From NCBI GenBank assembly GCA_001790095.1, contig MGBH01000001.1, positions 960,001 to 992,000 on the forward strand: a DNA stretch of 32,000 nucleotides, written 5' to 3'. The translations under genes and the position numbers were made by a program. The first letter of the stretch is position 1. Every line of letters starts with the position of its first letter. Source of the stretch: Candidatus Saccharimonadota bacterium (GTDB lineage: Bacteria; Patescibacteriota; Microgenomatia; UBA1406; GWC2-37-13). This document shows positions 3,094 to 32,000 of the stretch, piece by piece. The notes beneath the pieces are model-generated. The model was not told the origin of the DNA. It saw nothing but the letters and a program-made list of their open reading frames with translations, and did not search any database.

Positions 3094-3098
3094 TACTA

Positions 3099-3188
3099 AT
3101 GACCAATTATCAATTATCAATCAAATTCCAATGATTCAATAATTAATGGAAATTCATTGAAAATTGCAAAACTGAAAATTGAAAATTT
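3099..3188 (+). repeat. AT-rich palindromic element, family A (atgaccaatt...caattatcaatca...ttgaaaattgaaaatt); intergenic copy
   Basis: It shares its start (atgaccaatt) and internal blocks (atcaattatcaatcaaattcc[a/g]atgat) with the copy at 4959-5040, and its heptad tail (ttgaaaatt units) with the other copies. Confidence 0.85.
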
Positions 3189-3984
3189 ATTTATGAATGG
3201 TTTAAAAAAGAATATAAGGATCTTTTATCTTCTTTCCCTCAATGCCCTGAAAATTACCTTTCAGGCCCGAATCGGTGGGATATTTTTTCTTATTGGTAAA
3301 ATCATCCGTGTATTTTTTATTTTTTTATTCTTGAGTCTTATCTTCAGTCGTACCCGAATCATTAAGGGGTATACATTTGACCAAATTCTGCTTTTTTATC
3401 TTACCTTTAATATCATCGATACATTGAGTCAGATCCTGTACCGCGAAGTGTACCGATTTCGTCCACTGGTTGTGAGCGGCGGACTTGATATGGTTCTTCT
3501 TAAGCCGTTTCATCCTTTTGTCCGAGTGCTTTTGGGTGGTATTGATTACTTAGATATTGTTTTAATAGTTCCCTATATTTTATTGACTCTGGGAATTTAT
3601 ATAAAAATGGGTTCATTTCATTGGGGAAATATTATCTTGTATGTAGCTCTTCTTGGCAACTCGATGATCGTTGTTACTGCGTTTCACATCATCGTGCTTG
3701 CTTTTGGAATCATGACCACAGAGGTCGATCATACAATCATGATCTATCGAGATCTTATATCGATGGGAAGGTTTCCTTTGGAGATCTATAAAGAACCCAT
3801 AAGGGCAGTATTTACCTTTATTATTCCAATCGGAGTCATGATGAATGTGCCTGCACAAGCCCTCCTGGGGACTCTTTCCTGGAGGGGCGTCTTTTCTGCT
3901 TTTCTGATATCATTGGGGATGTTATATATCTCTCTTATATTTTGGAAATATGCACTTAAAAAATACCAAAGTTGGGGCGGTTAA
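3157..3984 (+). CDS. ABC-2 type transporter permease, second component
   Basis: 275 aa polytopic membrane protein between the first permease and the ATPase. The first 12 codons (MKIAKLKIENLF) are encoded by the AT-rich repeat at 3099-3188, so the true start is probably the ATG at 3193 (MNGLKKNIRIF...). Confidence 0.65.
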   Translation: MKIAKLKIENLFMNGLKKNIRIFYLLSLNALKITFQARIGGIFFLIGKIIRVFFIFLFLSLIFSRTRIIKGYTFDQILLFYLTFNIIDTLSQILYREVYRFRPLVVSGGLDMVLLKPFHPFVRVLLGGIDYLDIVLIVPYILLTLGIYIKMGSFHWGNIILYVALLGNSMIVVTAFHIIVLAFGIMTTEVDHTIMIYRDLISMGRFPLEIYKEPIRAVFTFIIPIGVMMNVPAQALLGTLSWRGVFSAFLISLGMLYISLIFWKYALKKYQSWGG

Positions 3985-3993
3985 ATAATAATT

Positions 3994-4962
3994 ATGATAT
4001 CGGTCAAAGATCTTACTAAAATTTACAAAGTCCATGAGCGCCAGGGAAATTTTATCAAAGATGTGTTATTTCGCAAATTCAAACGGGTTGAGGCGGTACG
4101 AGAGGTCTCTTTTTCCTTGGAACGCAATGAACTTGTCGGCTTCATAGGCCCCAATGGCGCCGGAAAAACCACAACGCTGAAGATACTAAGCGGTATACTT
4201 TACCCTACTTCTGGGCAGGTGTTTGTTGATGGATTTACTCCTTTTGAAAAAAAACCCGCATTTCTTAAACAGATTGCCTTTGTCATGGGACAGCGAAATC
4301 AGCTCATCTGGGATCTTCCGACAAGAGACAGTTTACAACTTCAGAAAACGATATATGAAGTCTCCGATCTTGAATATAAAAATAATGTACAGGAACTCAC
4401 CTCTCTTCTTGATTGTCAAAATCTGCTGGACAAACCGGTAAAAACGCTTTCTCTGGGTGAGAGAATGAAGATGGAGCTAGTAATGGGGCTCCTCTATAGG
4501 CCACGCATCGTGTTTTTCGATGAGCCAACCATTGGTCTTGATATATTTTCCCAAAGTGCAATAAGGGACTTTATCAAGGAGTATCAATCCGAAACTAAGT
4601 CAACCATCATATTAACAAGCCATTATCTTGAAGATGTTAAACGTCTTGCTAAAAGATTAATCATCATCAATAAAGGGTCAATAGTATATAATGGAAGTTT
4701 GAGTAATATTATTGAACAATATTCGCTTGAAAAGCACGTCAGAGTAACCCTTGACAAAACAGTAAATGAGACAGAAATCCGTAGAATCAATGTGCCATTT
4801 ATGTATACACACCCCAAAATCACCTTTAGCATAAAAAGAGGTGTTTTACCGGAGAAAATCAAGCTTATTACTCAAACTCTTCCTTTTTCAGATCTAACTG
4901 TTGAAGATGAAACGATTGAAGACATCATCAAAAGCTTCTTTGAAGAACAGAGAAACAAATGA
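3994..4962 (+). CDS. ABC transporter ATP-binding protein
   Basis: Walker A GPNGAGKTT, Q-loop MGQRNQ, ABC signature LSLGERMKM, Walker B IVFFDEPTIGLD, H-loop TSHY. The TGA stop lies inside the first bases of the repeat copy at 4959-5040. Confidence 0.92.
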   Translation: MISVKDLTKIYKVHERQGNFIKDVLFRKFKRVEAVREVSFSLERNELVGFIGPNGAGKTTTLKILSGILYPTSGQVFVDGFTPFEKKPAFLKQIAFVMGQRNQLIWDLPTRDSLQLQKTIYEVSDLEYKNNVQELTSLLDCQNLLDKPVKTLSLGERMKMELVMGLLYRPRIVFFDEPTIGLDIFSQSAIRDFIKEYQSETKSTIILTSHYLEDVKRLAKRLIIINKGSIVYNGSLSNIIEQYSLEKHVRVTLDKTVNETEIRRINVPFMYTHPKITFSIKRGVLPEKIKLITQTLPFSDLTVEDETIEDIIKSFFEEQRNK

Positions 4963-5040
4963 CCAATTTTCAATGATCAATTATCAATCAAATTCCGATG
5001 ATAATTGATTGAAAATCGGAAATTGATAATTAATAATTAA
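4959..5040 (+). repeat. Family A AT-rich palindromic element; intergenic copy supplying the TGA stop of the ABC ATPase
   Basis: atgaccaattttcaatgatcaattatcaatcaaattccgatgataattgattgaaaatcggaaattgataatt. The two arms are imperfect reverse complements. Confidence 0.85.
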
Positions 5041-5526: not shown

Positions 5527-6633
5527 ATGTCAAAACTCAAATTAGCCTATTTTGGCACGCCCATCTTTTCAGCCTACCTCCTTGAAAAAATCATCAAAGA
5601 CAAAGAGTTATCCGGTATCATACAGCTTGTCGTAACACAACCTGATAAGTTAGTTGGGAGAAAGCAAATTCTGACAAAGTCGCCCGTAAAAATAGTTGCA
5701 CAAACACATAAGATTGAAGTTTTGGATGATTCGGAAAGTGAAACGCTACTGCAAAAGATCAAGGGACTTGATCTTGCCATTGTGTATGCTTACGGTTTTA
5801 AAAAACTTCTTCCCCTCTCACTTCTCAAAGCCCCAAAAATCAAAATTAAAGATACGGGGACAGGTTTTATCAACATCCACCCTTCTCTTCTTCCTTTATA
5901 TCGCGGCTCCTCTCCTATCGCATACCCCATCTTGCTTGGAGAAAAAATAACTGGCGTATCGCTGTTTGTAATGGATGAACAGATGGATCATGGACCGCTT
6001 ATCGTACAAAAAAAAGTAGAAATAAGATTAAACGAAACAAGAAGCGATATGGAATCAAAATTGACTGATCTTGGGTTTGAAATACTGAAAAAACTTCTCA
6101 ATTCTTTAATCCGTGAATCCGTTAATTCATTAATTTTCACTCCTCAGAATCATTCCCTTGCCACCCGTGCCCCCTATATGATACGAGAAGATGGATATAT
6201 TGAGTTTACAACTCTCAAGAAAGCACTGAACAATGAGCCAATTGCTTTTAAAGAATTACCGCAGATTATCCAAAACTACCTTGATCATTATCCCCAGACA
6301 GATCGAGAACTAGTCTCAAAATACAAATTAGGAAATTATAGTCTGGATTCCCGCCTCCGCGGGAATGACATTTTTTCCAATTCTTCTCAGATTATCTATG
6401 ACTTTTGGAGAGGCATTTCGCCCTGGCCTGGTGTGTGGACCCTGTTAGAACCTCCGAGGTTTGACACGGTCCAGAAAGATAGAATCTCGGAGATTAAATG
6501 GAAAGGCCCAAAACGGCTCAAAATAACTGAAGTATCTTTTGTGGACAATATACTACAAATCAAAAAGGTCCAGCTTGAAGGAAAAAAAGAAGTGGACTTT
6601 ACAACCTTCCAAAAGGCGTATGGTTTGTTATAA
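5527..6633 (+). CDS. fmt: Methionyl-tRNA formyltransferase with an extended C-terminal domain
   Basis: N-terminal formyltransferase fold (LAYFGTP.FS, VVTQPDK, NIHPSLLPLYRGSSPI, VMDEQMDHGP). At 368 aa it is longer than typical Fmt. The extra segment contains an in-frame palindromic repeat at 6337-6370 encoding YSLDSRLRGNDI. Confidence 0.85.
   Translation: MSKLKLAYFGTPIFSAYLLEKIIKDKELSGIIQLVVTQPDKLVGRKQILTKSPVKIVAQTHKIEVLDDSESETLLQKIKGLDLAIVYAYGFKKLLPLSLLKAPKIKIKDTGTGFINIHPSLLPLYRGSSPIAYPILLGEKITGVSLFVMDEQMDHGPLIVQKKVEIRLNETRSDMESKLTDLGFEILKKLLNSLIRESVNSLIFTPQNHSLATRAPYMIREDGYIEFTTLKKALNNEPIAFKELPQIIQNYLDHYPQTDRELVSKYKLGNYSLDSRLRGNDIFSNSSQIIYDFWRGISPWPGVWTLLEPPRFDTVQKDRISEIKWKGPKRLKITEVSFVDNILQIKKVQLEGKKEVDFTTFQKAYGLL
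6337..6370 (-). repeat. GC-core palindromic element, family B (TGTCATYCCCGY-loop-RCGGGRATCCAGWCTATAAT), inside fmt in frame
   Basis: tatagtctggattcccgcctccgcgggaatgaca matches the copy at 13514-13545 at 29 of 32 aligned positions (13514-13545 spans 32 nt). The stem is attcccgc/gcgggaat. Confidence 0.9.
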
Positions 6634-6667: not shown

Positions 6668-7411
6668 ATGGGTGAAACTGCTGCTGTTCCCGAACCAACA
6701 CAACCTGTTACATTTGAGCAACTAAAAGGCGCTTTTAACGTCTTTAAAGACGATTATAAGATCGTCAATCATCCCAACACGCCAGTCAATACTCCATTCA
6801 ATGTTCCAAATCAACCCGATGCACATGGACGTCAATACAACCTCACTCTCATCCCAGAAGAAATGACAGAAAAAGAATATTTAAGTCATTTAGAAGCACC
6901 CGAAGGCATAGTTCTTTTCATCGGATGCATGGATCGTGATGCAGCACTACCCGCTTATCAAGAACTTCAAAAACAATATTCTGGCAAGAAGATTATATAT
7001 CTTACCGTAGCCGGTGGTGTTGTGCAAAAGGAGCAGCAACGTAAAGACGCGATGAGAACAATAATTACTCATGCATCACAGCATCAAGACCATATTGAAG
7101 CGGTTATTGCAACAGATCATGACCATACCTGCGGCAAAGTAAAAGCAGACCTTGCTGGAACTCCTCTTGCACAGGTTATAGGTATCGAACTTCCTGAAGT
7201 TGGAAACCCTGCCCCACCAGCCGAACAAGCTGAAATGAAATCTCTTATTGCAGGTGGTATTACAGAGCTTGGATTACGTAAGTTATTCCCTGGAAAAGTA
7301 CTTCCAGGTCTCGTTGCAATAAATAGACAAGGCAACGCTCATATTGATACAAATTTTCAAGGAGTACAACCAAAAACAATCAATCAAGTTGTAGAACAAA
7401 AAATAAGTTAA
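6668..7411 (+). CDS. Hypothetical protein with a CxDxD...AGG...HxCG pattern, possibly a beta-carbonic-anhydrase-like fold
   Basis: 247 aa with a Pro/Asn/Thr-rich N-terminus. The core reads IGCMDRDAAL ... YLTVAGGVV ... VIATDHDHTCGKV. By eye this parallels the CMDxR / RNAGG / HHTDCG blocks of one beta-CA clade. Not verified by search. Confidence 0.55.
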   Translation: MGETAAVPEPTQPVTFEQLKGAFNVFKDDYKIVNHPNTPVNTPFNVPNQPDAHGRQYNLTLIPEEMTEKEYLSHLEAPEGIVLFIGCMDRDAALPAYQELQKQYSGKKIIYLTVAGGVVQKEQQRKDAMRTIITHASQHQDHIEAVIATDHDHTCGKVKADLAGTPLAQVIGIELPEVGNPAPPAEQAEMKSLIAGGITELGLRKLFPGKVLPGLVAINRQGNAHIDTNFQGVQPKTINQVVEQKIS

Positions 7412-8661
7412 AGTCTATTTTCTGTTATCAATTTCCTCACATTCTCCATGAGGCGCTCCATAACCCACAAGTTGTGATATGTCGCAAGCGTACATCCTAA
7501 TATCTCCTTTTGCTTGAAAAGATGATGAAGATAGGCTTTTGTATAGTTTTTACACACCTGACACCCACATCCTTCATTTATTGACGTCAAGTCGGCCTTA
7601 TATATGCTTTTGTTAATATCAATCTGCGTTATAGAAGATTTCAAATTTGAACTGTCTATTTGAGTTTTGATATCTGAGATTTGATATATCGTTCCCATCC
7701 GCGCCAACCGTGTCGGCTCAACACAGTCAAACGTATCAATACCATACTTCACTAAATCGATTATGTCGTCAATATGGCCAACGCCAAGCAAATGTACAGG
7801 TTTATCTACAGGTAAATAGGGCGCAACCCATCTCACCTGATCCCTCATCTCCTCCTTGGTTTCTCCAACAGACACCCCACCTATTGCCACCCCATCAACA
7901 TCTTGGGATGTTACGAATTTAGCAGATGCGATGCGTAGGTCCTCATACGTGCCTCCCTGGATGATTCCATAGAGATACTGTTGGTTAATTTCCATTTTCC
8001 AATTTTCATTTTTCAATGAATTTTCAATTTTCAATTGATCATTGAATCTTAGATTTTGATTGATAATTGGTAACTGTAAATTGGTTTTTTTGTATGAAAT
8101 ACACCTTTTTAACCATTCATGCGTCCGCTTCATTGCTTTTTCTGCATATTCATGAGTCGCAGGATAATAAGTACATTCATCAAACGCCATCATAAGATCT
8201 GCTCCAATTGCTTTTTGATACTCCATAGATTTTTCCGGGGTAAACTCAATGATTTCTCCATCATAGACCGATCGAAACCTTACTCCATCCTCTGATATCT
8301 TAAGCATAAGAGGATCCTCATCCCCTCTCACATGAGCCTTGCGTTTTGAACTTTGTGCAAGAGAAAAAACCTGAAAACCACCGGAATCAGACATAAGAGG
8401 AATCTCGTATTTGGCAAGATTATGAATTCCTCCAACCTTTTGAAGCAACTCCATTCCCGGGTGAGTGATGAGATGATAAGTATTTACAAATGACATCTGT
8501 ATGCCTATTTCTTTTATAAAAGGTTGAGGCAGTGCTTTGATCGTACCTTTTGTCCCAACAGGTACAAATGCGGGGGTTAAAACAGTACCGTGGGCTGTGG
8601 TGATGGTCCCTGTACGAGATGCGGATTTTTTTGATCGTTTGTTTACTGTATAAAAAGACAT
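7408..8661 (-). CDS. tgt: Queuine/preQ1 tRNA-ribosyltransferase (tRNA-guanine transglycosylase) carrying an in-frame repeat-derived insert
   Basis: TPAFVPVGT, MSDSGGFQV, MAFDEC, GIIQGG, VAIGGVSVGE, LLGVG, and the zinc site CGCQVCKNYTKAYLHHL. There is an extra segment of about 30 aa (LQLPIINQNLRFNDQLKIENSLKNENWKME) just before the GIIQGG block. Confidence 0.93.
   Translation of the reverse strand: MSFYTVNKRSKKSASRTGTITTAHGTVLTPAFVPVGTKGTIKALPQPFIKEIGIQMSFVNTYHLITHPGMELLQKVGGIHNLAKYEIPLMSDSGGFQVFSLAQSSKRKAHVRGDEDPLMLKISEDGVRFRSVYDGEIIEFTPEKSMEYQKAIGADLMMAFDECTYYPATHEYAEKAMKRTHEWLKRCISYKKTNLQLPIINQNLRFNDQLKIENSLKNENWKMEINQQYLYGIIQGGTYEDLRIASAKFVTSQDVDGVAIGGVSVGETKEEMRDQVRWVAPYLPVDKPVHLLGVGHIDDIIDLVKYGIDTFDCVEPTRLARMGTIYQISDIKTQIDSSNLKSSITQIDINKSIYKADLTSINEGCGCQVCKNYTKAYLHHLFKQKEILGCTLATYHNLWVMERLMENVRKLITENRL
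7986..8073 (-). repeat. Family A element inside tgt, in frame
   Basis: The reverse complement reads taccaattatcaatcaaaatctaagattcaatgatcaattgaaaattgaaaattcattgaaaaatgaaaattggaaaatgg. It is colinear with the copy at 3099-3188. Confidence 0.8.
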
Positions 8662-12948: not shown

Positions 12949-13023
12949 ATTTTCATGATAGAAGATTTGTACTAAAGAATCAAGAGAGTTAAATCTGTCA
13001 TCCCCATAAGTATTGAAATGGTA

Positions 13024-13053
13024 GCATGGATTCCCGCCTTTGCGGGAATAACG
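13024..13053 (-). repeat. Family B palindromic element (short form)
   Basis: gcatggattcccgcctttgcgggaataacg. It has the same attcccgc/gcgggaat hairpin. Confidence 0.8.
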
Positions 13054-13107
13054 GTATAAGAATACCAAAGTAAGTCATTTGAGCTCAGTAAAATATTTTA
13101 TTGTTTT

Positions 13108-13142
13108 CTGTCATCCCCGCGTTAGAGTGGATTAAGTCTATA
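13108..13142 (+). repeat. Family B palindromic element, degenerate right arm
   Basis: ctgtcatccccgcgttagagtggattaagtctata keeps the TGTCATCCCCG start and the AGTCTATA end. Confidence 0.65.
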
Positions 13143-13163
13143 TTTAATATCTTTAATAGAGAT

Positions 13164-13222
13164 AAGTCATCCCCGTGAGTCAAGGACTTCCCTTTGGGAA
13201 AGACGGGGATCCAGTCTATAAT
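13164..13222 (+). repeat. Family B palindromic element (long form), immediately upstream of the GIY-YIG gene
   Basis: aagtcatccccgtgag...cttccctttgggaaag...acggggatccagtctataat. The outer stem is atccccgt/acggggat, there is an inner hairpin cttccc/gggaag, and the element ends in TATAAT. Confidence 0.85.
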
Positions 13223-13231
13223 AACCTTAAT

Positions 13232-13516
13232 ATGTTTGAAAAAACGTTTTATGTTTACATCCTATCTTCTCAAAAAAATGGAACACTGTATGTTGGAGTA
13301 ACAAACAATCTTATGAAGCGCATTTGGGAACATAAAAATAAATTGGTTGATGGGTTTACTAAAAAATATGAAATTCACCATTTGGTTTACTATGAAATAC
13401 ATGATAATCCAGAATCGGCAATACAGCGAGAAAAACAAATAAAGAAATGGAATCGTCTATGGAAAATCAGATTGATAGAAGAAAAGAATCCTGAGTGGAA
13501 AGATTTGTATATTTAG
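13232..13516 (+). CDS. Stand-alone GIY-YIG nuclease superfamily protein (UPF0213/COG2827-like)
   Basis: FYVYILSSQKNGTLYVGVTNNLMKRIWEHK ... GFTKKYEIHHLVYYE ... AIQREKQIKKW matches the GIY-(10)-YVG, R..EH and E..IK blocks. The track start at 13175 reads through a repeat. The ATG at 13232 follows a TATAAT supplied by the repeat end. Confidence 0.85.
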   Translation: MFEKTFYVYILSSQKNGTLYVGVTNNLMKRIWEHKNKLVDGFTKKYEIHHLVYYEIHDNPESAIQREKQIKKWNRLWKIRLIEEKNPEWKDLYI

Positions 13517-13545
13517 TCTGGATTCCCGCCTTCGCGGGAATGACA
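13514..13545 (-). repeat. Family B palindromic element immediately downstream of the GIY-YIG gene, in inverted orientation; contains its TAG stop
   Basis: tagtctggattcccgccttcgcgggaatgaca. Confidence 0.9.
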
Positions 13546-13602
13546 ATGCAAATAAGTAACGTTGTAAGCTACGAGGTATATGATAACCATCATATATTTC
13601 TT

Positions 13603-13638
13603 TGTCATCCTCGGGCTTGGCCCGGGGATCCAGACTAT
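13603..13638 (+). repeat. Family B palindromic element
   Basis: tgtcatcctcgggcttggcccggggatccagactat. Confidence 0.8.
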
Positions 13639-13654
13639 GATTACAGATCAGATT

Positions 13655-13798
13655 CACCCTCATCTCCTAGACGATAAGATATGTATCATCTCAGAGATGA
13701 GGGTGTTGTGGTAGTTGGAATCAGATTTTGAGCCATGGTTGGGCTAGTCTCGCAAGATGCGAGACTCAATCCATGGCACTGTGCCACACACAACACCC
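13655..13798. other. Nested-stem structured element (candidate ncRNA or DNA cruciform) between the repeat cluster and the lipoprotein gene
   Basis: Four perfect stems can be read directly: caccctcatctc (13655-13666) with gagatgagggtg (13694-13705); gggtgttgtg (13701-13710) with cacaacaccc (13789-13798); gccatgg (13732-13738) with ccatggc (13771-13777); and agtctcgca (13746-13754) with tgcgagact (13758-13766). Confidence 0.5.
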
Positions 13799-13814
13799 TA
13801 CATCGGATGGAATT

Positions 13815-14348
13815 TTACTTGACGCGAGCCCACCAGTCATACAAATTGAGATAGGCCTTGCCCGACTCAAAACTGATAAAGCCCACACTCATCTCATCTT
13901 CATCGTTACAACCGCTGACGAGGTATTGATCACCCTGGTGATAAACTTCTCCCGTGAGGGTTATTTCCCATTCCCCAACATTATTCTGCGTTGGTCTTTC
14001 ATCAACGTAGATAATGATTGTAACGTCATACAACCACCCAGCATCAATACAGGCGTTTGTATACTCTACCTTATAGGGCGACCTCTCCATCGTTAACTCG
14101 CGCTTCTCAACAACAGTTGATAGCGCGTATTCGGGGGAAGAACAGATCATGGGAGGGTGACATTCAGGCGTGATTGACGGAGCGGGGGGTTGAGGGGTGG
14201 ACGGAATGGCTGTGGGTTGTGGCTGCGGAGTTGATTCATTGGTCGGGACCGACGGTTGCGGTTCCGGAGTTGATACGGGGCTACCAAAGCATGCGCTTAT
14301 CAGCGTAGCAATAAGTAGCAAGCAAGCAACATTATACAGTTTCTTCAT
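13815..14348 (-). CDS. Lipoprotein with a Pro-rich linker
   Basis: The signal peptide plus lipobox is MKKLYNVACLLLIATLISAC. This is followed by a PQPxP-rich linker and a Cys-containing globular domain. It is preceded by a canonical AAGGAG 6 nt before the ATG, and it is visibly GC-richer than its neighbours. Confidence 0.7.
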   Translation of the reverse strand: MKKLYNVACLLLIATLISACFGSPVSTPEPQPSVPTNESTPQPQPTAIPSTPQPPAPSITPECHPPMICSSPEYALSTVVEKRELTMERSPYKVEYTNACIDAGWLYDVTIIIYVDERPTQNNVGEWEITLTGEVYHQGDQYLVSGCNDEDEMSVGFISFESGKAYLNLYDWWARVK

Positions 14349-14779
14349 AATTAACTCCTTATACTTCGTTTGATGGGTTGATAGAAATACATGCAGTTTT
14401 TTATCTTATATCATCTTATACTTGTCTCCTTTCTTCATCAATTCAATGATGAACTCCTATTTAAACACATAGAATAATCATGCGCTTAAAACGGAGTTCA
14501 TCACTTTAGAATAATTCCAACCGATGTTTTTTCAAAGAGCTTTTTAACCTGTTTTTTGATTTGCTTGTATCAAAAATGGTTAAAAAACAAAAAAATCCAT
14601 ACAACTACTGCAGAATGCTTATCTCTGCTTTGTTTATATCTTATAGTATTATATCACACCCATAGTGTATATGTATCAAATATGTATATTTAACCATCTA
14701 ATGACTCATTTTGTGCATGCCGCTGTTATTAGTTTGAAAATGAAGTTAAAGAAGAATTCAGAAGTAAAAAAAACAAAAA

Positions 14780-15430
14780 TTATTTTGTAGCACCAGCCAT
14801 AGGAACAACTCGCAATCCAAAGTGACTGAGATCACCCATAGACTTTTTTAGCATTATAGCCATATCTGCTAAATCAGCATTAGCTGGATTAAGGCTGTCT
14901 ATTGAATCTTGTAGAGAAAGCCTAGCAACCTGAAGCACGTCCTGAGCCTGTTCGCTCGGTGGCAATTGAGTACCGTATTCGAGATCTTTAAACTCAGGAG
15001 CATCTACCCATTTTCCCTCTCCGCCATCTCCTTTTTCCCAACAAGTAAGTTTCATGCCAAAATCAGATACATTACGCCCAGGTGTTATTGATCCAGTTTC
15101 TTGCGTTTCCTTCAAAGAGTATGGTTTTTCATCAGGTCCCCAGAACCTAACCTCAACAGCTTCCTTAGTCAATGGTTTTCCAGATGCTTTGCTCTTACCC
15201 TCCACTGTTCTTGTATAAGTGACTCCATCCCAGCTTAGTTTTCCACTAGGTTCTTGTGCTCTCAGATCAATTTTGTCTTTCTCCGGACTCATGTCACAAA
15301 TTCGTGGTCGTCCAAATCGATCTTTTTCCTGTCCAGGTTTGATCAAAGGTTCTGTTTGAGGAACCGCTTTTGCATGTGTTGCTGAAAAACCTGTAACATC
15401 ACCACCTTCTCCCATATGAATCAAGCACAT
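14780..15430 (-). CDS. Hypothetical protein (orphan); last gene of the thyA-folA operon
   Basis: 216 aa and soluble, with no motif I recognise. It lies 20 nt downstream of the DUF1599-like gene on the same strand. An alternative start is M6. Confidence 0.5.
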   Translation of the reverse strand: MCLIHMGEGGDVTGFSATHAKAVPQTEPLIKPGQEKDRFGRPRICDMSPEKDKIDLRAQEPSGKLSWDGVTYTRTVEGKSKASGKPLTKEAVEVRFWGPDEKPYSLKETQETGSITPGRNVSDFGMKLTCWEKGDGGEGKWVDAPEFKDLEYGTQLPPSEQAQDVLQVARLSLQDSIDSLNPANADLADMAIMLKKSMGDLSHFGLRVVPMAGATK

Positions 15431-15450
15431 TAAATAGTATTAACCTAATA

Positions 15451-25101: not shown

Positions 25102-25191
25102 ACGTATTTTATAGATTAATTCAATAACGATTAGTTTTATAGATCTATATATTACAAATATTTCTGAAAAAAAGCTGAAAAGCCTTTTTCT

Positions 25192-25264
25192 GTCATCCCC
25201 GTGAAGATCGGGTTCACCCTGAACTTCGGTTCACCGTGAAGGGGACTCAGTCTATAATGACAAT
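25192..25264 (+). repeat. Family B palindromic element (long form) between ctpA and htrA
   Basis: tgtcatccccgtgaag...ccgtgaaggggactcagtctataatgaca has the same ends as the copy at 13164-13222. Confidence 0.8.
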
Positions 25265-30678: not shown

Positions 30679-32000
30679 ATGTTTAAAAAGTTCCCCCTTA
30701 TTTTTTTGTGTGTACTTCTCTTTTATACCCGCTTTGTTGGTCTAGACTGGGGGTTGCCATACCCTATGCATCCTGATGAACGCAATATGGCCGTCGCAGT
30801 TCAGCAACTTACCTGTAAAGGGTTGGGGCCAATCGCCTATCTCCAACCGCTAACCGAATGTCTGAATCCTCACTTTTTTGCGTATGGACAGTTTCCGATC
30901 TATCTTGCATATTTTGGCATACTCATATTCCATTTTTTGCAAGGCATAAAAGCTCCTCCTGGTTTTATTGAGGCTACGATGGCTTTGCGAACAATCTCGG
31001 CATTAGCCTCAGTAGCAAATGCTTTTGTATTGTTTCGTATCATCGAATTTTCAATTTTAGATTTTCAATTTTCAAACAAATCTCATTCTAAAAATTCAAA
31101 AAATAAAAAATTGAATGAAAATTGGTTATTGAAAATTGGTTCATTCCTGGTCTTGATATTCTCTCCTTACTTCATCCAATTCTCCCATTTTGGTACCACC
31201 GAGTCACTTCTTATGCTCTTTTATTCTTTCATCATTTACGAATGCATCAAGCTCATTCAGAACAAAAACCTAAACACTAACTACTATCTACTAGCTACTA
31301 TTTCAGGAATTGCAATCGCCACAAAAGTTTCCTCCGTACTGTTTTTAGCCGTACCTGTCGTGTTTATAGGTATAAAAACAGGTTTGAGAAGTCTAACTGT
31401 ACTCTTTACTCTTTCCCGCTTTATTCTTCTTACCATGCTCGTCTCTATCATCTTTTCTCCCCACAACATCATCTCCCTTGAAGAGTTTGCGGGCTCGATG
31501 AACTATGAATCAGCGGTGGCAATCGGAAGCTATGTTGCCTTTTACACCAAACAGTTTGTCAATGCTCCCCCCCTTATATTTCAACTGACTAAGATTTTCC
31601 CTTTTGTATTGGGTTGGCCTCAATTTATATTGTCTGTCCTTGGTCTTCTTGTCTTATCATGGAGAGATAAAAGGATAAACGTGCTTCGATTTGCTTTTAT
31701 CGTTTTTTTTCTTCCGAATGCGTTTGTATTTGCAAAATGGACACGATTTATGACGCCTATTTTCCCGATTTTAAGCTTATTTACAATTCTCACACTTTGC
31801 AAACTTCTTAAAGTTTTCCAAAACAAATTCTCAATTATCAATGATCAATTTTCAATCATTTATCGAAAACTGAAAATTGAACGTTGGAGGTGTATTGAAA
31901 ATTGGAAATTGAAAATTGATCATTCTATAGTTTTTATATTAATCACTATAGTAATTCTCCCCGGTATCGCATACCTTTCTATCTACCAAACACCTGATGT
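30679..32000 (+). CDS. GT39/ArnT/PMT-like polytopic membrane glycosyltransferase; partial, continuing beyond the window end
   Basis: Absent from the track because it has no stop in the window. My translation from the ATG at 30679 gives MFKKFPLIFLCVLLFYTRFVGLDWGLPYPMHPDERNMAVA..., followed by many TM helices. Two in-frame repeat inserts encode IEFSILDFQFSNKSHSKNSKNKKLNENWLLKIGS and FSIINDQFSIIYRKLKIERWRCIENWKLKIDH. Confidence 0.8.
   Translation, partial: MFKKFPLIFLCVLLFYTRFVGLDWGLPYPMHPDERNMAVAVQQLTCKGLGPIAYLQPLTECLNPHFFAYGQFPIYLAYFGILIFHFLQGIKAPPGFIEATMALRTISALASVANAFVLFRIIEFSILDFQFSNKSHSKNSKNKKLNENWLLKIGSFLVLIFSPYFIQFSHFGTTESLLMLFYSFIIYECIKLIQNKNLNTNYYLLATISGIAIATKVSSVLFLAVPVVFIGIKTGLRSLTVLFTLSRFILLTMLVSIIFSPHNIISLEEFAGSMNYESAVAIGSYVAFYTKQFVNAPPLIFQLTKIFPFVLGWPQFILSVLGLLVLSWRDKRINVLRFAFIVFFLPNAFVFAKWTRFMTPIFPILSLFTILTLCKLLKVFQNKFSIINDQFSIIYRKLKIERWRCIENWKLKIDHSIVFILITIVILPGIAYLSIYQTPD
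31045..31142 (-). repeat. Family A element inside the GT39 gene, in frame, antisense orientation relative to the gene
   Basis: The reverse complement starts tgaaccaattttcaataacc and ends ttgaaaattgaaaatctaaaattgaaaattc. This matches the start and tail of the 3099 and 4959 copies. Confidence 0.75.
31827..31924 (+). repeat. Family A element inside the GT39 gene, in frame, sense orientation
   Basis: The segment caattatcaatgatcaattttcaatca ... ctgaaaattga ... ttgaaaattggaaattgaaaattgatca compares with caattttcaatgatcaattatcaatca at 4965-4990. Confidence 0.8.

Follow-up and report, generated by a model that had tools for sequence, protein, structure and literature searches.

A GIY-YIG nuclease gene between inverted hairpin repeats in a Roizmanbacteria genome, a probable Ssn/SRM module

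The DNA analyzed here, a stretch of 32,000 nucleotides (nt) referred to below as the window, comes from the Candidate Phyla Radiation (CPR) bacterium "Candidatus Roizmanbacteria RIFOXYB2_FULL_38_10". It contains a small GIY-YIG nuclease gene set between two oppositely oriented copies of a hairpin repeat, with further copies clustered nearby or dispersed. The gene is called ssn and the repeat SRM (Ssn-related motif) below, after the system to which we assign them. The features are listed by position, with z scores for single-stranded DNA (ssDNA) folds.

6337 to 6370, minus strand: solo SRM copy within fmt (fold z = -3.8)
12997 to 13006, plus strand: head-only fragment, GTCATCCCCA, found by sequence
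13022 to 13054, minus strand: inverted SRM copy with head GTT, not GTC (fold z = -3.7)
13108 to 13147, plus strand: decayed copy that retains the head and 5' arm and has a degenerate 3' arm (unfolded, z = +0.63)
13164 to 13222, plus strand: left SRM, or CGTC-type REP, from sequence and a structural scan
13194 to 13222, plus strand: promoter-like site TTGGGA-17 nt-TATAAT formed from loop and tail sequence of the left repeat (10 of 12 consensus matches)
13232 to 13516, plus strand: ssn, single-domain GIY-YIG nuclease gene (94 amino acids [aa]; TAG stop included)
13514 to 13545, minus strand: right SRM, inverted, with TGTC head, 8-bp stem ATTCCCGC, loop GAAG, and tail CCAGACTA
13603 to 13641, plus strand: intact SRM copy with TGTC head, 10-bp stem with one mismatch, and tail CCAGACTATGAT (fold z = -3.5)
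25190 to 25258, plus strand: solo long-loop copy between the gene for an S41 protease (ctpA) and that for an HtrA-like protease (weak fold, z = -1.4)

Residues 6 to 78 of the ssn product match the Pfam GIY-YIG domain (PF01541; E = 7e-17), and an AF2 model of the 94-aa protein forms one compact GIY-YIG domain with a pLDDT of 86.5. The protein is 58% identical to the Neisseria gonorrhoeae orthologue of SsnA over 86 of its 94 residues (E = 6e-40; 91% coverage). This orthologue, the translation of positions 1489 to 1770 of locus L088, stood in for the N. meningitidis reference CAX49033.1; with it as the reference, the window protein lies within the family threshold for SsnA similarity (E < 1e-10, at least 75% coverage). 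Members of the Ssn family are single-domain GIY-YIG proteins of about 90 to 150 aa whose best CDD domain is cd10448 (GIY-YIG_unchar_3) (PMC11893778). With 94 aa, a single domain, and clear homology to SsnA, the window protein is placed in this family. Its residues Y9, Y20, and E67 align with the catalytic Y6, Y17, and E64 of N. meningitidis SsnA, mutation of which abolishes cleavage (PMC11893778), and Y9, Y20, R30, H34, E67, and N86 are invariant among 14 homologues. The best fold matches of the AF2 model, UPF0213 (1zg2), 1ywl, and the Slx1 entries 7cq2 and 4xlg, liken it to UPF0213/YhbQ and Slx1, but similarity in sequence is marginal (E = 0.007 for 1zg2). Slx1 works with Slx4 on branched duplex DNA, and we know of no link to hairpin repeats for either UPF0213/YhbQ or Slx1. 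A search for a solved structure of an Ssn family member yielded these distant folds only, NCBIfam holds no model specific to the family, and PADLOC returned no defense-system match.

The dN/dS ratio of ssn relative to its relatives is 0.04 to 0.11, and the gene is under purifying selection. The window allele differs from its closest relatives by a 27-nt deletion. The relatives end in KDLYxDIL-TAA, about 10 nt ahead of the repeat; the deletion removes their last three residues, so that activity of the window Ssn is not guaranteed, and it is also the reason why the stop codon lies inside the right repeat. The original prediction had the right copy begin at the TAG stop of ssn, which is true of this allele and does not extend to those relatives.

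The sequence bore out the placement of the GIY-YIG open reading frame (13232 to 13516) between a forward left copy and an inverted right copy. The left copy has the head AGTC (GTC at 13166 to 13168), a perfect 7-bp stem with arms ATCCCCG (13169 to 13175) and CGGGGAT (13204 to 13210), and a 28-nt loop with sub-hairpins; its tail is CCAGTCTATAAT, or, written out, CCAG-TCTATAAT, and its ssDNA fold has an energy of -10.1 kcal/mol (z = -2.1). The right copy, the reverse complement of which is TGTCATTCCCGCGAAGGCGGGAATCCAGACTA, overlaps the stop codon of ssn and folds at -9.8 kcal/mol (z = -4.5). Chenal et al. (2025, PMC11893778) reported that the head GTC is critical for cleavage, that the C following the stem is likewise a critical position, and that cleavage persists when the loop is exchanged or lengthened. 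Both flanking hairpins of the window (13166 to 13214 and 13519 to 13544) keep the critical nucleotides, each having GTC, a stem without mismatches (7 bp and 8 bp, respectively), and C-CAG. The two copies had been described as terminal inverted repeats; the inverted orientation stands, but the repeats are not identical and represent two sub-types, with stems ATCCCCG and ATTCCCGC. Since these stems differ, one enzyme may not use both.

The conserved end of the left copy had been said to supply a TATAAT 9 nt before the ATG, and the hexamer is indeed at 13217 to 13222, exactly at that distance from the start of ssn. The position of the left copy and its TATAAT tail recur in eight of the 10 closest loci, the remaining two having one mismatch, and the -10 hexamer and a spacing of 9 to 10 nt to the ATG are kept in relatives. 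The left repeat tail probably supplies the -10 element of a nearly leaderless ssn transcript, and a putative promoter within this repeat would yield nearly leaderless mRNA. In a consensus scan, the number of promoter-like sites in the region was not above that expected by chance from shuffles.

The further copies that had been reported near 13024, 13108, and 13603 are all present, in different states of preservation (the first with the GTT head, the second decayed, the third intact), as are the dispersed copies in fmt (6337) and after ctpA (25192), the latter degenerate. The fragment at 12997 to 13006 was absent from the earlier list; together with the copy at 13022 to 13054, it could represent what is left of a deleted doublet. 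The copy at 13603 to 13641 and the right SRM face each other head to head, with 58 nt between them. In fmt the repeat is in frame and encodes residues 271 to 282 (SLDSRLRGNDI), a linker ahead of the C-terminal domain; whether this copy is ancestral and common to locus L087 is ambiguous in the alignment. In the copy at 25190 to 25258, the last stem pair, the critical C after the stem, and the tail are altered (GGGGACTCAG). A chance origin of the window repeats is ruled out by shuffle controls: half-motif counts were 8 versus 2.25 expected and 5 versus 0.52 expected, neither count being reached in any of 100 shuffles. Four of the short copies fold as ssDNA with z scores of -3.5 to -4.5. In all, 7 to 8 copies or fragments occur in 32 to 42 kb of a genome of roughly 1.2 Mb. 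Neither an Rfam match nor the GAAACCGCACTA element seen beside loci L004, L006, and L011 was found in the window.

The repeats also create artefactual open reading frames (the SFPRRRESR and IPAFAGMT peptides) and false N-terminal extensions of both neighboring genes, as had been predicted; the copy at 13022 to 13054 sits within one such extension. An extended 113-aa gene call is already present in public data (P0001). Literature searches on the artefactual peptides and on COG2827 found nothing relevant.

Two described groups of repeats bear directly on these elements. CGTC-tagged REPs, which include Neisseria dRS3/NTS and Rickettsia RPE-6 and RPE-4, have been defined by an unpaired CGTC tag (TGTC or CCTC being allowed), an 8- to 9-bp stem that begins with AT, a loop of 4 to 5 nt, and a CCA tail, and they number from tens to thousands per genome (Di Nocera 2013, PMC3733652). 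Two window copies, at 13519 to 13544 and 6344 to 6369, fit this definition in full (TGTC, ATTCCCGC, 4-nt loop, CCA); the copy at 13024 to 13052 fits except for its head, and those at 13166, 13604, and 25192 depart from it in the length of the loop or stem. Window copies thus share with these REPs the tag, the 8-bp AT-first stem, the 4-nt loop, and the CCA tail, and also the head-to-head dimers, the in-frame intragenic copies (here in fmt), and the lack of an HUH transposase nearby. They differ in that they bracket an ssn gene and in that several loops are far longer than 4 to 5 nt.

The second group is that of the Ssn/SRM system, in which a single-strand DNA nuclease is flanked by hairpins that the enzyme recognizes (Chenal et al., Nat Commun 2025, PMC11893778). 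Binding of such hairpins has been shown for SsnA of Neisseria and for three of its homologues; it requires ssDNA, is limited to one strand, and is followed by a cut a few nucleotides 5' of the hairpin, and duplex DNA is left uncut by the characterized homologues (PMC11893778). The hairpin core of the window, GTC-ATTCCCGC-loop-GCGGGAAT-CCAG, is the same as that of the Ssn system, and the repeats resemble the Neisseria NTS, CGTCATTCCCGCGMAVGCGGGAATCYRG; in both cases ssn is flanked by oriented copies and others are clustered and dispersed. The window differs in its host, a CPR group (Roizmanbacteria) unmentioned in the main text of Chenal et al., in its TGTC or AGTC rather than CGTC heads and the 28-nt loop of the left copy, and in a tail that is extended in this lineage to CCAG(T/A)CTATAAT, with the -10-like hexamer 9 nt before the ATG. 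The right copy (13518 to 13545; 0.09 matches expected per shuffle) is the sole window copy that fits the published SRM search pattern. The left copy fails it because of its 28-nt loop, where a maximum of 5 is allowed, and the A before GTC; the next copy on the 5' side has the GTT head, and the fmt copy misses the pattern at the first loop base only. Within 500 bp of ssn, the pattern therefore occurs on the 3' side only. Although flanking SRMs are typical of ssn genes, 71% of homologues have at least one SRM and 42% have SRMs on both sides (Chenal et al., 2025, PMC11893778); flanking on both sides is thus typical, not obligatory.

The generality of this arrangement was assessed in 80 homologous loci from many phyla, using a hairpin rule that filtered on GC content and demanded a tail, with reversed sequence as the control; a looser rule (GTC plus any 7-nt stem) was dropped, as it gave many false positives. 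Of the 80 loci, 65 have a forward copy no more than 150 nt upstream of ssn and 56 an inverted copy downstream, with both present in 48, and the median gap is 14 nt. With the published pattern and 500-bp flanks, the corresponding numbers are 64 loci with at least one copy and 33 with copies on both sides. Orientation is biased on each side of the gene (55 forward versus 20 inverted copies upstream, 47 inverted versus 19 forward copies downstream). Across 91 flanking copies, 98.6% of the stem cells are paired, seven of eight stem pairs show double changes, a level of covariation reached in none of 500 shuffles, and the invariant nucleotides are those of the head GTC and the C that follows the stem. 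The bracketed architecture is therefore general among ssn loci, and the hairpin structure is conserved. The left and right stems also agree with each other more often inside a locus (63%) than across loci (41%), a value reached in none of 5,000 permutations.

We consider it very probable that the unit is an Ssn/SRM module, in which ssn stands between two copies, their tails pointing toward the gene, of the hairpin that its enzyme would recognize, SRM being the likely equivalent of the CGTC/TGTC-tagged REP. By homology with the characterized enzymes, the window Ssn would bind 5'-YGTC-(AT-stem)-loop-(stem-AT)-CCAG-3' as a folded hairpin and solely in single-stranded form, and would hydrolyze the bound strand a few nucleotides 5' of GTC; it would ignore RNA, duplex DNA, and the opposite strand. 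The inverted orientation of the two flanking copies would put one cut at each outer border of the unit, the two cuts being on opposite strands. Hairpins and TATAAT-containing tail are conserved with the gene as one block, and the dispersed and clustered copies would be further targets of the same enzyme. The original prediction that the GIY-YIG protein recognizes these hairpins is supported because experiments with homologues show hairpin binding; the 58% identity and the flanking pattern of the 80 loci are likewise consistent with it, and cleavage of ssDNA by the window protein is predicted. The likeliest role, by comparison with Neisseria, would be to control recombination or to process SRM-bearing ssDNA, for example transforming DNA on its entry into the cell. 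The transformation role is extrapolated from that one species.

An alternative that overlaps with the Ssn/SRM module, and adds to it a claim about dispersal, is that SRM-ssn-SRM is an active or recently active autonomous mobile element that transposes or homes as a unit. Nicks made by Ssn at the hairpin heads would start the copying of the unit and of gene-less hairpin singlets and doublets into new sites, aided by host repair or recombination, and Ssn would be the missing mobilizer of CGTC-type REPs. We regard this as possible but improbable. In its favor, homology between the window and nine close loci starts at (T)GTCAT and stops at GGAATGACA, though dS is saturated, and these block limits coincide with the outer hairpin heads, where Ssn is predicted to cut. 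Each Roizmanbacteria ssn allele is in a different genomic context, and the unit lies in a segment of about 2.5 kb that is missing from three syntenic relatives; since relatives of the 599-aa neighbor are at most 57% identical, this demonstrates absence of the segment and not exact junctions. The family is patchy across phyla, with protein identities of 60 to 85% that span CPR, Proteobacteria, Chloroflexota, and Planctomycetota. Several ssn copies can share one contig or stand in tandem, and end duplications and doublets occur, for example, in locus L009 and in the window cluster. More than 500 bp from ssn, SRMs have a density of 0.094 per kb versus 0.002 per kb in the control. Di Nocera (2013, PMC3733652) found no transposase or dedicated enzyme for CGTC REPs, and the IS-like architecture of ssn loci and the hypothesis of a domesticated transposon have already been raised by Chenal et al. 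(2025, PMC11893778).

Against mobility, three exact alleles (P0030, P0032, and that of the window) were each followed through 24 contigs, and every contig showed the allele at one and the same fixed locus; in the index, 147 blocks contain P0032, 114 contain P0030, and 49 contain the neighboring 177-aa gene of the window. The idea that one allele might occur in several contexts was rejected, as P0030 and P0032 have a single context each. Paralogues on one contig have a dS of 1.4, with synonymous divergence saturated, and with dS above 1 they appear to be old. The original prediction had proposed a search for target-site duplications and empty sites; neither a duplication nor an empty site with exact junctions was found among the close loci and syntenic relatives, a metagenome scan for empty sites with the 177-aa neighbor returned nothing, and all same-species contigs examined carry the unit. 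In addition, 2.9 million viral contigs held only 25 ssn homologues, so that carriage by phages is rare. The enzymology also fits poorly: GIY-YIG enzymes hydrolyze DNA and would alone be incapable of strand transfer, and the two predicted cuts on opposite strands are unfit for a peel-and-paste ssDNA circle.

The resemblance to RAYT/REPIN systems is architectural. Like the unit described here, these systems have a small gene flanked by inverted copies of a short, dispersed hairpin repeat, keep each allele at one stable locus with vertical persistence, and have an enzyme that recognizes the hairpin as ssDNA. The window enzyme is a hydrolytic GIY-YIG nuclease rather than an HUH/Y1 transposase, and therefore forms no covalent intermediate; the tag is GTC, not GTAG. 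Membership in RAYT/REPIN or IS200/IS605 was rejected, the GIY-YIG nuclease being the only gene between the hairpins. No paper was found in a literature search for GIY-YIG jointly with RAYT or repetitive extragenic palindromes. It is a doubtful proposition that SRM-ssn-SRM represents, or until recently represented, a new class of bacterial mobile element with a hydrolytic GIY-YIG ssDNA nuclease in place of an HUH or DDE transposase. If it were true, cuts at the outer heads in exposed or incoming ssDNA would free hairpin-ended fragments, which would be copied or recombined into other SRM sites. Ssn would then be the long-missing mobilizer of dRS3, RPE-6, and similar repeats, and the spread of REPs into minimal CPR genomes, each copy with an outward-facing TATAAT, would be explained.

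It is very unlikely that the hairpins are ordinary cis-regulatory REPs (terminators, mRNA stabilizers, or promoter modules) with no specific relation to the GIY-YIG gene. The TATAAT tail 9 nt before the ATG, the general position of REPs downstream of genes, and the location of the cluster between one gene end and one gene start would all suit such a function, but the oriented pairing with ssn recurs in 48 to 65 of 80 unrelated loci over a background of 0.002 to 0.3 copies per kb, direct binding and cleavage have been published for four homologues (PMC11893778), and no T-run was seen after the hairpins. Slightly less probable still is a free-standing homing endonuclease of the I-TevI/Seg type that cuts duplex DNA and spreads by double-strand-break repair with the repeats incidental, for despite weak similarity to a PHROG homing endonuclease family (E = 7e-5) and a match to TIGR01453 that stays below threshold (22 bits versus a cutoff of 56), the protein has only 94 aa and no DNA-binding domain outside the catalytic core, its setting is a CPR chromosome and neither a phage nor an intron, the folds nearest to its own are those of UPF0213 and Slx1, and characterized homologues leave duplex DNA uncut (PMC11893778).

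The module is known in kind, as a CPR member of the Ssn/SRM system described in 2025; because the unit belongs to that system, the original prediction rediscovered a known kind of module. The small new points are the Roizmanbacteria host, the TATAAT tail of the repeat, and the 27-nt deletion that shifts the stop. A reading of raw sequence nevertheless recovered a real partnership of enzyme and repeat that was recognized in the literature only in 2025. The repeats account for spurious SFPRRRESR, IPAFAGMT, and LDSRLRGND peptides and for false N-terminal extensions in public gene calls, and a divergent Ssn/SRM pair is a candidate reagent for sequence-specific cutting of ssDNA. For the family, the partnership is extended to Candidate Phyla Radiation genomes. 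The question of dispersal raised by Di Nocera in 2013 is sharpened by block boundaries at predicted cut sites on the one hand and, on the other, by the stability of single loci and the age of the paralogues. In the window lineage, the TATAAT tail suggests that each copy of the repeat could be a portable -10 element.

The locus at 13232-13516 is an Ssn/SRM module, a system of known kind, in a CPR host. Its gene, ssn, encodes a GIY-YIG nuclease and stands among copies of a hairpin repeat, the Ssn-related motif (SRM).

6337-6370: SRM copy in fmt (ORF 5527-6633), in frame
12997: SRM fragment, head only
13024-13052, minus strand: SRM copy with a GTT head
13108-13147: decayed SRM copy
13164-13222, plus strand: left SRM, with head GTC, arms ATCCCCG/CGGGGAT, a 28-nt loop and tail CCAGTCTATAAT
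13232-13516, plus strand: ssn ORF, 94 aa, Pfam GIY-YIG match at E=7e-17
13514-13545, minus strand: right SRM, beginning at the TAG stop; reverse complement TGTCATTCCCGCGAAGGCGGGAATCCAGACTA
13603-13641, plus strand: intact SRM copy
25190-25258: degenerate SRM copy, 3' of the S41 protease gene

The original prediction of a GIY-YIG ORF between a forward left copy and an inverted right copy held with small corrections, and the further copies that it placed at 13024, 13108, and 13603, in fmt, and after ctpA were recovered, with half-motif counts (8 versus 2.25 expected and 5 versus 0.52 expected) above every shuffle. Four short copies folded as single-stranded DNA with z scores of -3.5 to -4.5. The predicted perfect TATAAT is indeed present in the left SRM tail, ending 9 nt 5' of the ssn ATG, and a promoter-like TTGGGA-17-TATAAT spans 13194-13222; promoter-like sites in the region were no commoner than in shuffles. 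The published SRM pattern matches only the right copy; the 28-nt loop places the left one outside it. The fmt copy lies in the linker between Formyl_trans_N and Formyl_trans_C and encodes SLDSRLRGNDI, resembling the RPE insertions of Rickettsia. The spurious ORFs and false N-terminal extensions described in the original prediction also occur in the window, and a public gene call (P0001) already contains one of these extensions. Several over-long gene calls in relatives translate the same repeat as LCHPRESGDPVYN, SFPRKRESR, VIPANAGIQ, or KLDSRLRGND.

The function of the system has been described in Neisseria (Chenal et al. 2025, PMC11893778). SsnA of N. meningitidis is a 94-aa, single-domain GIY-YIG protein (CDD cd10448) that binds its hairpin target, NTS (CGTCATTCCCGCGMAVGCGGGAATCYRG), only as single-stranded DNA and on one strand only, cutting a few nucleotides upstream; cleavage is lost in the mutants Y6A, Y17A, and E64A (PMC11893778). 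The nucleotides directly 5' of the stem weigh most for cutting and the C directly 3' of it for binding; the loop is dispensable. SsnA lowers transformation by NTS-bearing DNA in Neisseria, and where a genome has more than 200 SRMs, it encodes Ssn in 81% of cases (PMC11893778). The window protein, which has more than 8,000 database relatives, is 58% identical over 86 residues (E=6e-40) to the N. gonorrhoeae ssnA ortholog (L088:1489-1770), and its Y9, Y20, and E67 align with Y6, Y17, and E64 of SsnA. These three residues, together with R30, H34, and N86, are invariant among close homologs. Its AF2 model comprises one GIY-YIG domain (pLDDT 86.5); the closest folds were UPF0213 (1zg2) and Slx1, and no solved Ssn structure was found in this comparison. 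The characterized Ssn homologs support the original proposal that this protein recognizes the hairpins. PLSDB lists two N. gonorrhoeae chromosomes of 2.17 Mb as plasmids, NZ_CP119142.1, from which the gonococcal locus L088 (1880219-1883476) comes, and NZ_CP119140.1; their ssnA ortholog is unannotated there, has ATT rather than ATG as codon 1, and is surrounded by at least seven strict NTS copies within 3.3 kb.

The hairpins correspond to a repeat superfamily described earlier, the CGTC-tagged REPs, which have a CGTC/TGTC tag, an 8- to 9-bp stem starting with AT, a 4- to 5-nt loop, and a CCA tail, and which include Neisseria dRS3 and Rickettsia RPE-6/RPE-4 and may be intragenic (Di Nocera et al. 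2013, PMC3733652). That superfamily "apparently lacks a dedicated transposase" (PMC3733652).

The association was assessed at 80 homologous loci (one-genome-per-species contigs, 59 to 85% protein identity) from CPR lineages, Proteobacteria, Chloroflexota, Planctomycetota, Nitrospirales, and others. The arrangement was nearly uniform, with a forward hairpin directly 5' of the ATG and an inverted one directly 3' of the stop. By a structural rule, a forward copy lay within 150 nt upstream at 65/80 loci, an inverted copy lay downstream at 56/80, and both were present at 48/80, with a median gap of 14 nt; reverse orientations occurred at 16/80 loci on each side. Under the published pattern and 500-bp criterion, at least one copy was found at 64/80 loci and copies on both sides at 33/80, close to the 71% with a nearby SRM and 42% with SRMs on both sides reported for ssn homologs (PMC11893778). 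The orientation bias was clear with this pattern too, and the reversed-sequence control gave 0.002 copies per kb. An alignment of 91 flanking copies showed no variation in the head GTC or in the C that follows the stem. Compensatory changes affected 7 of 8 stem pairs (98.6% of cells paired; 0/500 shuffles as high) in copies that had been selected for complementarity at 7 of the 8 pairs; the eighth, unselected pair covaried as well (CG in 77, UA in 10). Left and right stems agreed at 63% within a locus versus 41% between loci (0/5,000 permutations as high). Two loci, L015 and L040, each carry two divergent tandem ssn paralogs (53% and 63% nucleotide identity) with their own hairpins; Ssn can therefore be multicopy in a genome, unlike typical RAYTs.

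A conserved block emerged when the window was aligned with the nine loci closest to it. Homology sets in at (T)GTCAT in the left hairpin and stops at GGAATGACA in the right one, and the outer flanks of the 10 loci are unrelated. Within the block, the tail CCAG(T/A)CTATAAT is followed by a constant 9 to 10 nt to the ATG, and AAGGAATATT-TAGTCTGG is kept 3' of the stop; left hairpins are mostly of the ATCCCC type and right ones mostly ATTCCCGC. In the coding sequence dS is saturated (1.1 to 2.4) and dN/dS is 0.04 to 0.11, yet the noncoding block ends are conserved, which argues that these ends are under selection too. Relative to its closest homologs (L004-L012), the window allele carries a 27-nt deletion (site 13510-13516) that took out the last codons (C-terminal xDIL) together with the TAA stop and spacer, and for this reason its stop is the TAG of the repeat tail. 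The deletion is common to all same-species contigs. At three of the close loci (L004, 2865-3440; L006, 2867-3405; L011, 2852-3430) the whole SRM-ssn-SRM block is nested in an element of ~560 nt, absent from the window, whose ends are the inverted repeats CC(T/C)GAGTTTCCCACTTT ... AAATGGGAAACTC(A/G) and which has a GTAG-headed hairpin, GTAGTnTGAAACCGCACTAC, directly upstream. This element could be either a larger version of the block or another mobile element.

The window also holds a second, AT-rich repeat family (CAATTTTCAATGATCAATTATCAAT...) of long imperfect palindromes.

7982-8090: AT-rich copy inside tgt (ORF 7408-8661, minus strand)
3095-3203, 4957-5040, 31046-31160, and 31823-31940: related copies

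The tgt copy is an in-frame insertion of about 23 to 29 codons (residues about 196 to 224, QLPIINQNLRFNDQLKIENSLKNENWKMEIN) that two syntenic relatives lack in their TGT proteins. An inverted repeat unrelated to SRM (13655-13705; 22-nt arms, 86% complementary, 7-nt spacer), which has no T-run, lies between the SRM cluster and where the 177-aa gene ends.

That Ssn mobilizes the repeats was also proposed originally and had already been put forward as a hypothesis by Chenal et al. (PMC11893778). In its favor, the block ends where Ssn is predicted to cut; against it, the two predicted cuts are on opposite strands and Ssn is a hydrolytic enzyme. Alleles in Roizmanbacteria occupy different contexts (queA/CarboxypepD_reg for the window, TIM/UvrD for P0032, and L31/transglutaminase-like for P0030); however, any given exact allele was found at a single locus, in 24/24 contigs per allele, and dS between two paralogs of one contig is 1.4. 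About 2.5 kb of the window (12949-15450), comprising two hypothetical genes (216/211 aa; 177-aa putative lipoprotein) and the ssn/SRM cluster, is absent from three relatives with ThyA-DHFR-DUF1599-CarboxypepD_reg-queA synteny, in which the DUF1599 gene directly adjoins the CarboxypepD_reg gene. Against this, an empty site with exact junctions, the proposed check, was found neither in syntenic relatives nor in a metagenome scan. Locus L009, where an additional right-end copy separates TATAAT from ATG, also favors movement. With evidence on both sides, we keep mobilization as a hypothesis, though one less likely than not. The L009 copy (PFTH01000032.1, Roizmanbacteria CG_4_9, ~230-330) is inverted, reads TATATTATGTCTGGATTCCCTCC..GGGAATGACA, and forms a gene-less left-plus-right doublet immediately 5' of ssn. 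The P0032 neighborhood is polymorphic: some samples (L115-L118) carry an IS3-family insertion (rve plus HTH_Tnp_1) ~400 nt upstream of ssn that L114 lacks, with the position of ssn constant.

The additions to the known Ssn/SRM system are small: its occurrence in the CPR, a TATAAT-bearing tail, left and right hairpins that differ consistently, the 27-nt deletion, and alleles that each stay at a single locus.
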